From the NCBI GenBank assembly GCA_030680605.1, contig JAUXUQ010000012.1, positions 22,339-86,338 of the forward strand: a stretch of 64,000 bases of DNA, read 5' to 3'. Of the stretch, positions 8,472 to 11,534 are shown piece after piece; within the stretch, counting starts at the first letter, position 1, and each line of letters opens with the position of its first letter. The stretch is from Gammaproteobacteria bacterium (lineage in GTDB: Bacteria; Pseudomonadota; Gammaproteobacteria; SURF-13). A program made the position numbers and the translations under genes. The notes beneath the pieces are model-generated. The model had not been told where the DNA came from and did no database searches. It was given only the letters and a program-made list of their open reading frames with translations.

Positions 8472-8921
8472 TCACTTTTTCGCGGTCAATTTAAGGGCCG
8501 CCGAGTTGATGCAATACCGCTGTCCCGTCGGTTGTGGGCCATCCGGGAACACATGGCCCAGATGTGCGTCACACACGCTGCACAGCACCTCTGCTGGGCA
8601 GGGAGCCCGAATGTCGCGGGCGCATGGATGCGCAGGAGCGACGGTTCTGCGCATGAAAAAGCCGTTATCTTCCTTCTCCAATACGCTGTCCTCCGCAATC
8701 GGTGCCCAGTAACTGGGCCAGCCGGTGCCGGAATCGAATTTTGTTTCCGCAGCGAACAGCGGATTGCCGCAACAAACACAGTGATACACGCCCGCCTCCT
8801 TGCAGGCATGGTATTCACCGCTGAATGCGCGTTCGGTACCGTGCCGACGTGTCACTTCATATTGCTGCTGCGTGAGCAGCTTTTCCCACTCCTCAGCGGA
8901 TTTGGCTATCTTCTCCCTCAC
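8472..8921 (-). CDS. msrB: Peptide methionine-(R)-S-oxide reductase MsrB, carrying a 16-aa in-frame insertion
   Basis: Has GTERAFSGEY, CVCCGNPLF, KFDSGTGWPSY and C..CDAHLGHVFPDGPQPTGQRYCINSAAL. Compared with E. coli MsrB there is an extra APAHPCARDIRAPCPA between RRTV and EVLCSVC. Confidence 0.85.
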   Translation of the reverse strand: MREKIAKSAEEWEKLLTQQQYEVTRRHGTERAFSGEYHACKEAGVYHCVCCGNPLFAAETKFDSGTGWPSYWAPIAEDSVLEKEDNGFFMRRTVAPAHPCARDIRAPCPAEVLCSVCDAHLGHVFPDGPQPTGQRYCINSAALKLTAKK

Positions 8922-8933
8922 ACCACGTTACCT

Positions 8934-10607
8934 CTAATCCGTCACCGCACCGACGCTGCTGCTCGACACCTGTTTGGCGTATTTGGCCAACACACCGCGT
9001 GTGTAACGTGGCGCGGGCGGCTGCCACGCGGCGCGGCGCCGGGCCAGCTCCGCTTCCGGCACATTGAGCTGCAGCAGACGTGCATCCGCGTCGATGGTAA
9101 TGGAGTCACCCTCCTGTACCAGCGCGATGGTGCCGCCCACCGCCGCCTCGGGCGCAACATGGCCCACCACCATGCCGTAGGTGCCGCCGGAAAAGCGGCC
9201 ATCGGTAATCAGGCCAACAGCGTCGCCCAGGCCTTCACCAATGATGGCCGAGGTGGGCGACAGCATTTCGCGCATGCCGGGCCCGCCCCTTGGGCCTTCA
9301 TAACGTATAACCACCACATCCCCTGCCTTGATTTTTTGCGCCAGTATGGCCTCCATGCACGTCTCTTCCGACTCAAACACACGCGCCGGACCGGTAATGG
9401 CATGCAGCTTGATGCCGGTGATCTTTGCCACCGCACCTTCCTCGGCCAGATTACCCTTCAGGATGGCAAGATGGCCCTGGGCGTAGATGGGTGCGCTCCA
9501 CGGCCGGATGACGTCCTGATCCTTGCGCGGCTCTGCCGGCACGTCCTTTAATACTTCCGCTACGGTCTGGCCGCTGATAGTCAGCGCGTCGCCATGCAAC
9601 ACACCGTGCGCGAGCAGGATCTTCATCACTTGGGGAATACCGCCCGCCTGGTGCAGGTCGGTGGCCACATAACGCCCGGAGGGTTTCAGATCGCACAGCA
9701 CCGGCACGCGCACGCGCACGCTCTCGAAATCATCAATCGCAAGCGGTATCTGCATGGCGTGCGCGAGGGCGAGCAGGTGCAACACGGTGTTGGTGGAACC
9801 ACCTACCGCCATGGTCACGGCGATGGCGTTTTCAAATGCCTTGCGCGTGAGTAACTGACTCGGCAGTATCTGTTGCTTGATCGCGTTCACCAGCACTGCG
9901 GCGGACTCGGCTGTACTCTCCGCCTTCTCCGCATCTTCGGCTGCCATGGTGGACGAATAGGGCAGGCTCATGCCCATGGCCTCGATAATGGAGGACATGG
10001 TGTTGGCGGTATACATGCCGCCGCACGAACCCGCACCCGGACAGGCGCGGCGCTCGACCTCCATCAACTCCTGCTCGTCGATTTTATGCGCGGTGAACTG
10101 GCCGACGGCCTCGAAGGCGCTGACGATGGTGAGGTCACGGCCTTTGTAATGGCCCGGCTTGATGGTGCCACCGTAGACAAATATCGCGGGAATGTTCAGG
10201 CGCGCCATGGCAATCATGGCGCCGGGCATGTTCTTGTCGCAGCCGCCGATGGCAAGCACACCGTCCATACTCTGGCCATTGCACACGGTTTCAATGGCGT
10301 CGGCAATCACCTCGCGCGACACCAGTGAATATTTCATGCCCTCGGTGCCCATCGAGATGCCGTCACTGATGGTGATGGTGCCAAACACCTGCGGCATGGC
10401 CCCAGCCTGCTTCAGCGCCGCTTCGGCGCGCGCGGCCAGTGCACCTATGCCCATGTTGCAGGGCGTGATGGTGCTGTGCGCATTGGCAACACCGACCACC
10501 GGCTTGTCAAAGTCCGCATCGCCAAATCCCACTGCACGCAGCATGGCGCGGTTGGGTGAACGCTGCACGCCCTGGGTAACGACTTTGCTCCTGCGATTAT
10601 CCGACAT
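8934..10607 (-). CDS. ilvD: Dihydroxy-acid dehydratase
   Basis: 557 aa. Near-canonical IlvD (CDKNMPG, SDG.SMGT motifs). Confidence 0.95.
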
Positions 10608-10642
10608 TATTTACTCCATACACATGGGTTGATTGATGACTT

Positions 10643-11344
10643 TCATTTGTTATTCCACAGACACTGGCCGCCACTCGCTGTGGTAATCGCCTGCAGCCGT
10701 TCCTCGTGCGCACTGATCTCCTCGGCCGTGGCACGCAGCACTGGCAACGCGGCACGCTTGCCCGACACGCGCCGCACGGCCTGCGCCTCGGTGCCAAAAT
10801 GGGCCGCATCGCCCAGCAGGCTGGCCTGGCCGCCGGTCATGGCCAGATACACCTCGGCCAGTATCTCCGCATCCAGCAGTGCACCGTGGTGGGTGCGCTG
10901 CGAGTTGTCCACGTTATAGCGTTTGCAGAGGCTGTCGAGATTGTTTTTCTGGCCGGGGTGCAGCGAACGCGCCAGTTGCAGCGTGCAGGCGACGGTGCAG
11001 CAATCCTGTATCTCGCCGTGCTCCGGGCCCAGCAACGACAACTCGCTGTTGAGAAAGCCGACATCAAAGGCCGCATTGTGTATCACCAGCTCAGCATCGC
11101 GCACAAACGCGACAAACTCATCTGCGATATCGCGAAAGCGCGGCTTGCCCGCCAACTGCGCGTCGGTGATGCCGTGTACTTCCATGGCGCCGGGGTCAAT
11201 CGGGCGGTCGGGTTGCAGGTAGTAGTGGAAGGTATTGCCCGTCTTGCGTCGGTTCACCAGTTCCACGCAACCGATCTCGATGATGCGGTGGCCCTGCGCG
11301 TGCTCCAGTCCGGTGGTTTCGGTATCGAGGATGACCTGCCTCAC
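10643..11344 (-). CDS. dnaQ: DNA polymerase III epsilon subunit (3'-5' exonuclease)
   Basis: 233 aa. Exo motifs: DTETTGL, HGIT..., HNAAFD. Confidence 0.9.
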   Translation of the reverse strand: MRQVILDTETTGLEHAQGHRIIEIGCVELVNRRKTGNTFHYYLQPDRPIDPGAMEVHGITDAQLAGKPRFRDIADEFVAFVRDAELVIHNAAFDVGFLNSELSLLGPEHGEIQDCCTVACTLQLARSLHPGQKNNLDSLCKRYNVDNSQRTHHGALLDAEILAEVYLAMTGGQASLLGDAAHFGTEAQAVRRVSGKRAALPVLRATAEEISAHEERLQAITTASGGQCLWNNK

Positions 11345-11381
11345 GGGGCACCTCTAAAAACGTCTCTTTTGCTCCAATACA

Positions 11382-11534
11382 GTGCTGTACAAGGACGTAC
11401 GAATGTCGCGCGCGCAGGACGCGCAGGAGCGACCGTTGCAGCTTGTCTCCGCTGCTCACATGCTGGCGTGTATGCTGTGCTGTACAAGGATGTATGAATG
11501 TCGCGAGCGCAGGATGCGCAGGAGCGACCGCTGC
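11382..11534 (+). repeat. Two tandem copies (about 58 bp each, period 95 bp, about 90 percent identical) of a GTGCTGTACAAGGAYGTAYGAATGTCGCG.GCGCAGGAYGCGCAGGAGCGACCG element
   Basis: Direct comparison of 11382..11440 with 11477..11534. Lies in the rnhA-dnaQ intergenic region (dnaQ promoter side). Confidence 0.65.

Follow-up and report, generated by a model that had tools for sequence, protein, structure and literature searches.

The 64,000-nt stretch of DNA analysed here (the window) belongs to contig JAUXUQ010000012.1 of a Gammaproteobacteria bacterium (assembly GCA_030680605.1) and contains three full copies of a 51-nt repeat, one of them in frame within the msrB gene and two in the spacer between rnhA and dnaQ. 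This repeat is most probably a non-autonomous mobile DNA element, which would be mobilised in trans by a structure-specific enzyme acting on single-stranded DNA. The core motif of the repeat, GAATGTCGCGNGCGCAN{3,6}GCGCAGGAGCGAC, was searched for in the window with 100 dinucleotide-preserving shuffles as the control, and three matches were obtained, all on the + strand (8609-8642, 11401-11433, and 11496-11528), versus none in the shuffles. A previous reading of this DNA from its letters alone (the sequence-only reading) had reported three copies of a motif in the same orientation, which is hereby confirmed. The limits of each unit were set by a covariance model (CM R1) made from family members (Table 1). 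Accordingly, the copy in msrB, placed at 8619-8661 in the sequence-only reading, is relocated to 8592-8642, the former coordinates being about 20-27 nt off, and a partial copy given as 7060-7090 actually occupies 7036-7082, where a degenerate relic retains hairpin 1 and GCAGGGATGCGCAGGAG.

An in-frame insertion in msrB

The insert in msrB is 51 nt long, encodes 17 amino acids (VAPAHPCARDIRAPCPA), and lies between MRRT and EVLC, just ahead of the second CxxC motif, bringing two extra cysteines near the zinc site. The sequence-only reading was right about the reading frame and the position before the second CxxC, but not about the size, for which it gave 48 nt and 16 amino acids. Among the 120 best MsrB homologues from 5.8 billion clustered proteins, 117 do not have the segment, and only P0001-P0003 have anything at this place: P0001 is identical to the window protein, P0002 contains the same 17 amino acids, and P0003 shows a remnant of 10 amino acids. 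P0004-P0006 are 92-93% identical to the window MsrB outside the insert, yet they do not have it, and neither does the solved MsrB structure 2k8d. The segment is thus indeed extra relative to other MsrB proteins, as had been proposed, and the alignment of orthologues shows that it is lineage-specific. A metagenome scan with the MsrB protein yielded relatives at no more than 62% identity only and no further insert carriers.

The empty state of the site is found in locus L003, in which the sequence ...AGAACC|GAGGTG... runs through an unbroken ACC|GAG junction; the window gene has 51 additional bases at this point, with no target duplicated. Genes that are 93% identical (L003, P0005-P0006) with an uninterrupted ACC|GAG, as well as the dispersal of the family and its in-frame presence in other genes (see below), bear out the earlier picture of a small mobile repeat that inserted in frame into an enzyme. 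The opposite direction, in which intergenic DNA received a copy of an old coding segment of msrB, or in which the likeness arose by chance from GC-rich composition, can practically be dismissed. The initial resemblance is all that speaks for it, against the lack of any match in the shuffles, the absence of the segment from nearly all MsrB proteins (117/120), the exact empty sites, and the hundreds of copies elsewhere with conserved, covarying helices, a structure independent of frame and strand.

The full insert was found in five msrB genes from independent assemblies (the window, L181, L001, L180, and L182), and the frame is intact in all of them. At the DNA level, it is identical to the window copy at 51/51 positions in L181, L001, and L180 and at 50/51 positions in L182, and the coding DNA flanking the insert differs by 10-30% among the five carriers. 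Between two clades, the third codon positions show 0/17 changes in the insert versus about 64/133 in the flanks; if the insert had changed at the flank rate, so few changes would be expected with a probability of about 1e-6 to 1e-8 in the comparison between clades and of 0.003-0.07 in that within clades. No co-converted flank was seen around the insert. Furthermore, the msrB gene of L002 keeps a 30-nt in-frame remnant (10 amino acids) with the same hairpin-1 variant, and that of L003 keeps none.

A question raised by these findings is whether the 17-amino-acid peptide was kept since it is beneficial to MsrB, with its two extra cysteines by the zinc site, the intergenic look-alikes being secondary. 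The intact frame in five independent assemblies, the persistence of the in-frame remnant in L002, and the position of the insert immediately ahead of the second CxxC would agree with such a benefit. However, the contrast of 0/17 with 64/133 changes points to a constraint at the nucleotide level rather than at the peptide level, 93% identical MsrB genes exist without the segment, and the same 51-nt unit also occurs in unrelated proteins, in another frame and strand, and in non-coding DNA. In addition, an AlphaFold model of MsrB (120-sequence alignment) predicts a confident fold with blocks at a predicted local distance difference test score (pLDDT) of 75-90, in which residues 87-106 fall below 50, as in a floppy loop. 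We thus regard a benefit to MsrB as very improbable, and the predicted structure suggests that the insert is probably a tolerated, disordered loop. Two explanations remain for the frozen state of the insert: a nucleotide-level constraint on an old insertion combined with precise loss in L003-like lineages, or the repeated insertion of one variant at one site. The frozen insert may possibly reflect sequence-directed re-insertion (homing) rather than descent.

Two nested copies in the rnhA-dnaQ spacer

The spacer between rnhA and dnaQ is itself an insertion, namely a host MITE (miniature inverted-repeat transposable element) with terminal inverted repeats (TIRs) of 15-17 bp. It occurs once in the window and is dispersed at many unrelated loci of related metagenome-assembled genomes (MAGs; JAQBXX, CAMTVY, JAURVQ, and CAWUTX). 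In L002 and L003, there is no spacer, and rnhA and dnaQ overlap by the 4-nt ATGA; the MITE is inserted exactly at this overlap of the rnhA stop and the dnaQ start. One end of the MITE encodes a new C-terminus and stop of rnhA (QGASENDGF-stop, versus GTALT-stop in relatives), and dnaQ is left with a GTG start. Both genes are intact because the MITE end provides the new rnhA tail and stop and dnaQ starts at the GTG.

Two sites within the MITE can hold the 51-nt unit, and they are occupied differently among its copies. Site 1 is filled in L059, L091, and L050 and empty in L011, L028, L038, and others, while site 2 is filled in L011, L012, L021, L028, L038, L041, and others and empty in L059 and L091. 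Both sites are filled in the window. By repeat finding, the intergenic pair appears as two 63-nt units that are 89% identical and 95 bp apart (family D7). Comparison of the MITE copies indicates that this "95-bp tandem" is two independent insertions into similar target sites of one MITE, and the similarity runs a few bases past the 51-nt unit because the two insertions hit similar targets. The 95-bp period noticed in the sequence-only reading therefore holds, but its unit length of 58 bp has to be replaced by 63 nt and its tandem arrangement by independent nested insertions. The hairpin-1 variants at site 2 differ among MITE copies (GTAC in L011; GCAC/GTGC in L024 and L047), which hints at repeated insertion at this site.

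A dispersed family with a covarying fold

GTDB species genomes were scanned once with the exact core only, which was found in 95 stretches, that is, far more widely than expected of a genome-local repeat. The carriers include MAGs of Sulfurifustaceae, Ca. Muproteobacteria, and Acidiferrobacterales as well as Stenotrophobium, Gilvimarinus, Dokdonella, Methylomonas, Thiodiazotropha, and Erwinia mallotivora. One carrier MAG is labelled Burkholderiales; the remaining hosts are Gammaproteobacteria (many MAGs, few isolates). Overall, the element hops among the genomes of a sulfur-cycle Gammaproteobacteria group. The covariance model search of the carrier loci gave 129 matches, and a second 51-nt subfamily (type B, CGACGTACAGGGACGTACTAGTGTCGCGGGAGGCAGGACGCCGGGAGCGAC) was recognised that often adjoins type A in direct or inverted order. 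In the 20-kb L180 locus, from a lineage that carries the msrB insert, six matches of types A and B were found, about one per 3 kb; they include 6744-6820, 12160-12300, and 15248-15298, and type A and type B lie there on opposite strands.

On the other hand, the covariance model had no match in 80 msrB loci of unrelated taxa (about 355 kb), and the core had none in viral contigs or in E. coli genomes; the plasmids gave a single core match, in a Lonsdalea primase gene. Searches of Rfam 15 with the window copies returned no family, be it at the gathering threshold or at E <= 10. In a string search of the papers available, none contained the 13-mers of the element and its 10-mers matched unrelated primers only, which weakly suggests that the family has not been described by sequence before.

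The element has the layout TG(C/A)TG-H1-GAATG-GTCGCGG-H3-AGGA-GCGAC, with TGCTG-H1-GAATG as the left half and H3-AGGAGCGAC as the right half. When single-stranded, it forms two hairpins, H1 with a stem of 4 bp and, downstream of it, a longer one that is interrupted, its outer stem GTCGC/GCGAC enclosing GCGCA/TGCGC. The stems vary in a paired manner: one position of the H1 stem is UA in 58, CG in 25, and GC in 9 copies, and another is AU in 49 and GC in 37; the outer stem has the variants ATCGC/GCGAT, GCCGC/GCGGC, and GTCAC/GTGAC, and the inner stem the variants GGCC, GACA/TGTC, and GCACA/TGTGC. Among 94 distinct copies, 97.3% of the cells of the three helices are paired and 10 of the 14 pairs show double compensatory changes, whereas shuffled and slid alignment controls scored far lower on pairing and covariation. 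Minimum-free-energy folds reproduce the three-helix structure for both strands. The sequence of each terminal loop is CA(N)GGA(Y)G. The length is narrowly fixed, with 61/94 distinct copies being exactly 51 nt and 22/94 being 52 nt long.

Several head-to-tail arrays were also observed. Behind a tRNA gene and terminator, L064:5149-5338 (-) contains three units, in two of which hairpin 1 has an expanded form of 69 nt, and two units abut in L027:133-236 (-). Three copies of the GCGCAGGAC segment stand in L078:163-231 (+), apparently through slippage within the inner hairpin.

Insertion behaviour and other host genes

Four pairs of empty and filled sites could be compared (msrB, argA in L003 versus the window, and sites 1 and 2 of the MITE). 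In each of them, exactly 51 nt are gained or lost with no target duplication, and the junction is ambiguous by at most 1 nt. The sites of the family lie in open reading frames, in intergenic DNA, and in other MITEs. No terminal inverted repeats exist in the consensus of 94 copies, whose ends (TGCTG... and ...GCGAC) are not complementary. At the right flank, C occupies position +1 in 63/72 unique sites, often as part of CG; the left flank is weakly biased (T or C at -2, not A at -1). Several copies are located directly after terminator hairpins, and sites between convergent genes number 15 versus 6 between divergent genes. By approximate counts, 21 copies between co-directional genes are in sense and 19 in antisense orientation, and the copies within coding sequences comprise 12 sense and 8 antisense ones. 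Such an unbiased orientation fits selfish, non-directional behaviour.

In-frame copies are not restricted to msrB. Pfam confirmed them in HisS (L087), in the lipoyl-E2 linker of a 2-oxoacid dehydrogenase (sucB, L098), and in an RHS protein (L065), and reading of the sequences added RHS-repeat proteins in L053 and L074. DnaG-type primases (DnaG zinc finger in Pfam) carry them in L094, L057, and the Lonsdalea populi plasmid NZ_CP072857. Furthermore, a type B copy encoding 17 amino acids (AAHGRASVAGGRKPGAT) lies in frame in argA at L003:5202-5252, and the window argA is empty at that site. Since msrB is filled and argA empty in the window and the reverse is the case in the sister L003, these neighbouring genes were hit independently in sister lineages. 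In-frame copies are also present in IS91-family Y2 transposase genes (PF04986), as identified by Pfam in L054, L060, and L090 and by similarity in L095 and L097. These five copies occupy at least three positions in both orientations, and the insert in L090 separates two histidines of a putative HUH (histidine-hydrophobic-histidine) motif (NLNVH-[18 aa]-HMLFLDGVY).

The intact genes use only two of the six frames, an antisense one (VAPAHP...) and a sense one (G(A)AHG.NVAGAG.AGAT, in its fuller form GAAHG.NVAGAG.AGAT), both of which give small Ala/Pro/Gly-rich peptides; 56 of 87 copies are open in all six frames. Host proteins are kept intact by insertions in loops and linkers because the unit consists of 17 codons, is mostly stop-free, and encodes small-residue peptides.

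CsrA-like loops

CsrA binds an RNA consensus, RUACARGGAUGU, as defined by systematic evolution of ligands by exponential enrichment (SELEX), in which GGA is located in a hairpin loop (PMC4347634). In the copy at 11478-11528, hairpin 1 (GUACAAGGAUGUA; GUACAAGGAUGU) matches this consensus perfectly. Among the 94 distinct copies, the exact 12-mer is present in 10, ACAnGGAnGU in 43, and at least two CA(n)GGAnG motifs in 72, and the exact 12-mer has 2 matches in the remaining 2.27 Mb of collected DNA. Each unit has three GGA motifs; the loop is exactly AUGGAU in many copies at H1 and in the msrB copy at H3. Between the inner hairpin GCGCAGGAUGCGC and positions 10-22 of the Rfam RsmY stem-loop, there is a local match of 8 bits, which is not significant.

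The TwoAYGGAY motif (RF01731), an RNA of gamma-Proteobacteria reported in 2010 with unknown function (Weinberg 2010, PMC2864571), has been predicted, without test, to be a CsrA sponge (PMC4333381). A true match to it (48.4 bits versus a gathering threshold of 43; Csr/Rsm clan CL00106) lies at L062:2021-2125 in Gilvimarinus, beside element copies and on the other strand. Moreover, in Gilvimarinus isolates (L062:1000-2300 and L025:100-1300), tRNA-Ala-like genes are broken in the T-loop by about 150 nt, which consist of the 51-nt element and two further GGA-loop hairpins, and the tRNA promoter TTGACA-17-TATTAA is kept. To judge from their sequence, these loci look like tRNA-scaffolded multi-GGA RNAs.

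It is therefore worth considering that the unit could primarily be an RNA module with a function, namely two GGA hairpins that bind CsrA/RsmA, akin to TwoAYGGAY or the Rsm/Csr sponges, spread by selection for Csr regulation or sponges instead of, or beside, selfish transposition. The match of the loops to a known RNA-protein recognition motif, the perfect SELEX consensus in one window copy, the enrichment of the exact 12-mer in the copies, the local RsmY likeness, the bona fide RF01731 match next to copies, the sponge prediction for TwoAYGGAY, and the promoter-bearing tRNA-Ala-like scaffolds with further GGA hairpins would all be in line with this idea. In contrast, the host mRNAs of the window copies have UCC rather than GGA loops because all window copies are antisense to the host transcripts, and no + strand promoter was found near these copies. 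There is also no orientation bias relative to transcription among about 100 unique copies, and both orientations occur within open reading frames (ORFs). RF01731 did not score on the window copies even at E <= 10, and the RsmY match mentioned above is the only one to Csr/Rsm RNAs. A tblastn search for csrA in the collected genome fragments gave no match, an uninformative result for a small, fragmentary sample. Taken together, a primary RNA function appears rather unlikely. A related idea, to which we give equally little credence, is that the unit may be a mobile cassette of two high-affinity GGA hairpins that bind CsrA/RsmA. It would seed Csr-regulated sites after landing in the sense orientation, and sponge RNAs could be built from several units, as in the tandem arrays and in the promoter-driven, tRNA-Ala-embedded ones of Gilvimarinus; homing into msrB is a linked possibility. 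The CsrA-like loop motif itself is a real feature of the sequence; it could be the recognition signal of the mobilising protein, a trace of a Csr/Rsm-type RNA origin, or the result of occasional exaptation.

A possible mechanism of movement

If the repeat is a mobile DNA element, as we favour, it would be moved in trans by a structure-specific enzyme acting on single-stranded DNA. HUH transposases are candidates for this role, either those of the IS200/IS605-RAYT (Y1) type or those of the IS91 (Y2) type, where RAYT stands for the tyrosine transposase associated with repetitive extragenic palindromic (REP) sequences. HUH-type mobilisation is suggested because hairpins replace the TIRs, the junctions are seamless, and the sites often adjoin terminators or other hairpins. 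Likewise, IS200/IS605 and RAYT/REP systems rely on stem-loops, have no TIRs, and cause no large duplications (PMC2817692). The copies in Y2 transposase genes are a lead; an enzyme acting preferentially in cis, targets that are single-stranded, or mobile DNA that carried the copies along by chance could each account for them.

Several observations weigh against this interpretation. ORF clustering in the 8-kb pieces of the carrier genomes around the 95 loci gave no transposase, only repeat read-through ORFs and RHS/ABC paralogues, and none of 40 ORFs examined in the window, all ordinary housekeeping genes, is a transposase or recombinase; since no enzyme was found near the copies or in the window, we can only infer the mechanism. 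A selfish insert inherited passively would not be expected to be 51/51 identical, as the msrB insert is, between genes that are 28% diverged. Because the scan demanded an exact core, the family looks more conserved than it is, and the orientation counts are approximate, the codon log-odds gene caller having miscalled rnhA in the window. With regard to the fold, the sense strand contains 11 G-T and 5 A-C pairs outside the loop-closing pair, and the loop-closing pair is itself A-C in many copies (G-T on the opposite strand); either strand may be the one that folds. Finally, the recognition motif in the loops hints at a role at the RNA level that a mobile DNA element does not need.

Other features of the window

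The genes argA, msrB, ilvD, dnaQ, and rnhA form an operon-like series, with every gene on the - strand (Table 1).

Table 1 Element copies, host MITE, and neighbouring genes in the window.
Feature	Position	Strand	Evidence or remark
Degenerate element relic, 13 nt downstream of the argA stop	7036..7082	+	CM 17.4 bits, E 0.013
argA	7095-8426	-	
msrB (149 amino acids; SelR split by the 17-amino-acid insertion)	8472..8921	-	Pfam SelR in 2 stretches
Element copy in msrB	8592..8642	+ (antisense to msrB)	CM 72.7 bits; exactly 51 nt
ilvD	8934-10607	-	
dnaQ (RNase_T exonuclease domain; start codon abuts the MITE end)	10643..11344	-	Pfam; junction alignment
Host MITE, about 245 bp, TIRs GGGYGCCTCTRAAAAYG	11346..11589	.	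TIRs 11348-11362 (+), 11572-11586 (-)
Element copy, site 1 of the host MITE (aatacTG|CGTTGC)	11383..11433	+	CM 76.6 bits; exactly 51 nt
Element copy, site 2 of the host MITE (tatgcTG|CGCTGC)	11478..11528	+	CM 77.2 bits; exactly 51 nt
rnhA	11561..12073	-	Pfam; protein alignment

Other identities of the repeats were tried and excluded. The rnhA-dnaQ repeats are no CRISPR array, given their 95-bp period, 63-nt shared unit, and two copies only. A bacterial selenocysteine insertion sequence in msrB, suggested by the SelR identity of the protein, is excluded by the absence of an in-frame UGA and by the distance of the insert from the catalytic Cys, and an integron attC site by the absence of R''/R' core sites. 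Group II intron domain V and small ribozymes show no likeness to the unit and gave no Rfam match.

Elsewhere in the window, two GTAGGTCGGATCAAGCGTARCGGATCCGAC copies (34446-34475 and 62033-62062, - strand), which are 97% identical, represent a classical REP with a GTAG head and a palindrome, and they resemble Thioalkalivibrio and Coxiella REPs tabulated in PMC2817692. Because such classical GTAG REPs are present, the source genome probably carries a RAYT-type system besides the 51-nt family. In addition, two adjacent paralogous ORFs of about 205 amino acids each (36398-37018 and 36988-37599, - strand) have no Pfam match at E <= 1e-5; the families D2 and D4 of DNA repeats, with 73-82% identity and a spacing of 578-581 bp, mark their duplication.

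Significance

Small selfish repeats that survive in essential genes show how proteins gain loops and how far genomes tolerate invasion. The family described here is unusually small (17 codons), structurally well defined, and conserved across several orders, and its empty and filled states were caught in neighbouring housekeeping genes (msrB, argA, and the rnhA/dnaQ junction). It is thus a clean system for studying the enzyme that moves TIR-less hairpin elements, site-directed insertion, and seamless excision. Through the CsrA-motif loops, a mobile element may be tied to a global post-transcriptional regulator, a link that can be tested directly. The loops also suggest where TwoAYGGAY-like RNAs, whose function has been unexplained since they were reported in 2010, may have come from; if this is true, the TwoAYGGAY "orphan" RNAs would be kin of a mobile element family. 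Regardless of these possibilities, there is a lesson for annotation, in that a 17-amino-acid MsrB "insertion" and a 216-bp operon "spacer" are both repeat insertions. Overall, the element is a new family of a known type of selfish repeat, and its interest comes from the minimal size, the cross-order conservation, the clean empty and filled sites in adjacent core genes, the msrB insert that has stayed frozen, and the loops with the CsrA motif.

Comparison with known systems

By analogy, the closest functional counterparts of the 51-nt element would be the Rickettsia palindromic elements (RPEs), which are hairpin-forming selfish repeats found in frame in unrelated housekeeping genes and translated as fold-compatible peptides (PMC10969869). 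Insertion in frame into unrelated genes with retention of the ORF is common to both. However, RPEs measure about 100-150 bp and form ten families in Rickettsia (Alphaproteobacteria), whereas the present unit has 51 nt, two GGA-loop hairpins, and, apart from one MAG labelled Burkholderiales, gammaproteobacterial hosts; the likeness drawn here is a functional one.

With REP/REPIN-RAYT systems, the element shares a very short, structured unit in high copy number with neither TIRs nor target-site duplications (TSDs), a frequent location at gene 3' ends beside terminators (compare the 15 convergent with the 6 divergent sites), and the occurrence as single copies, in tandem, or as inverted doublets. 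Enzymes of the IS200/IS605 type recognise stem-loops and do not leave a duplication behind (PMC2817692). The 3' end of the element, CAGGAGCGAC, is similar to GTAGGAGCG, the head of REPs from Pseudomonas and Xanthomonas (table in PMC2817692), a likeness to be taken as a lead only. Nevertheless, the 51-nt consensus does not have the GT(A/G)G head that defines REPs (PMC2817692), and its two hairpins stand in direct rather than inverted order. The unit is frequently intragenic (msrB, argA, hisS, sucB, RHS, primase, and Y2_Tnp genes), whereas REPs are extragenic, and its conservation extends across orders, whereas a REP is usually specific to one species. ORF clustering over about 1.1 Mb of carrier loci, with no hidden Markov model scan of all ORFs, brought up no rayt gene with inverted copies on its two sides. 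Miniature elements derived from IS200/IS605 are similar in having subterminal hairpins and no TIRs or TSDs. IS200/IS605 elements insert 3' of a fixed tetra- or pentanucleotide, with a strand bias linked to replication and a cognate TnpA; the present unit has a weakly biased left flank and C at +1 in 63/72 sites.

MITEs such as the Coxiella QMITEs, ERIC, and Correia are also small, non-autonomous, and dispersed, and in-frame ORF fusion is possible for them (PMC10969869). The classical criterion of a small, non-coding, multi-copy element with presence/absence polymorphism is shared by the 51-nt unit, but the unit has neither TIRs nor TSDs, and it is the host element at 11346-11589 that is a true TIR-MITE. 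A classical MITE also has a parent insertion sequence with matching ends; in the 8-kb pieces of carrier genomes, no ORF recurred beside the copies. The TwoAYGGAY motif has two stem-loops with A(Y/N)GGAY loops, a CsrA-binding motif, which the A(N)GGAY loops of the unit resemble. In its architecture, however, RF01731 places two long hairpins of about 10 and 15 bp side by side within an outer stem, whereas the stems of the unit are much shorter: its first hairpin has 4 bp and is joined by a conserved GAAUG linker to a second one, which is nested in GUCGC/GCGAC. RF01731 had no match in the window at gathering (43 bits), nor at E <= 10 on 7000-12200 or 11330-11580, and to our knowledge TwoAYGGAY has not been described as mobile or intragenic. 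Csr/Rsm sponge small RNAs have a promoter and terminator of their own and many GGA hairpins per transcript; the window copies differ from them in that no promoter-like + strand site lies nearby. Taken together, the element works like an RPE/REP-type selfish repeat, yet it stands outside MITEs, REPs, and RF01731 by their defining features.

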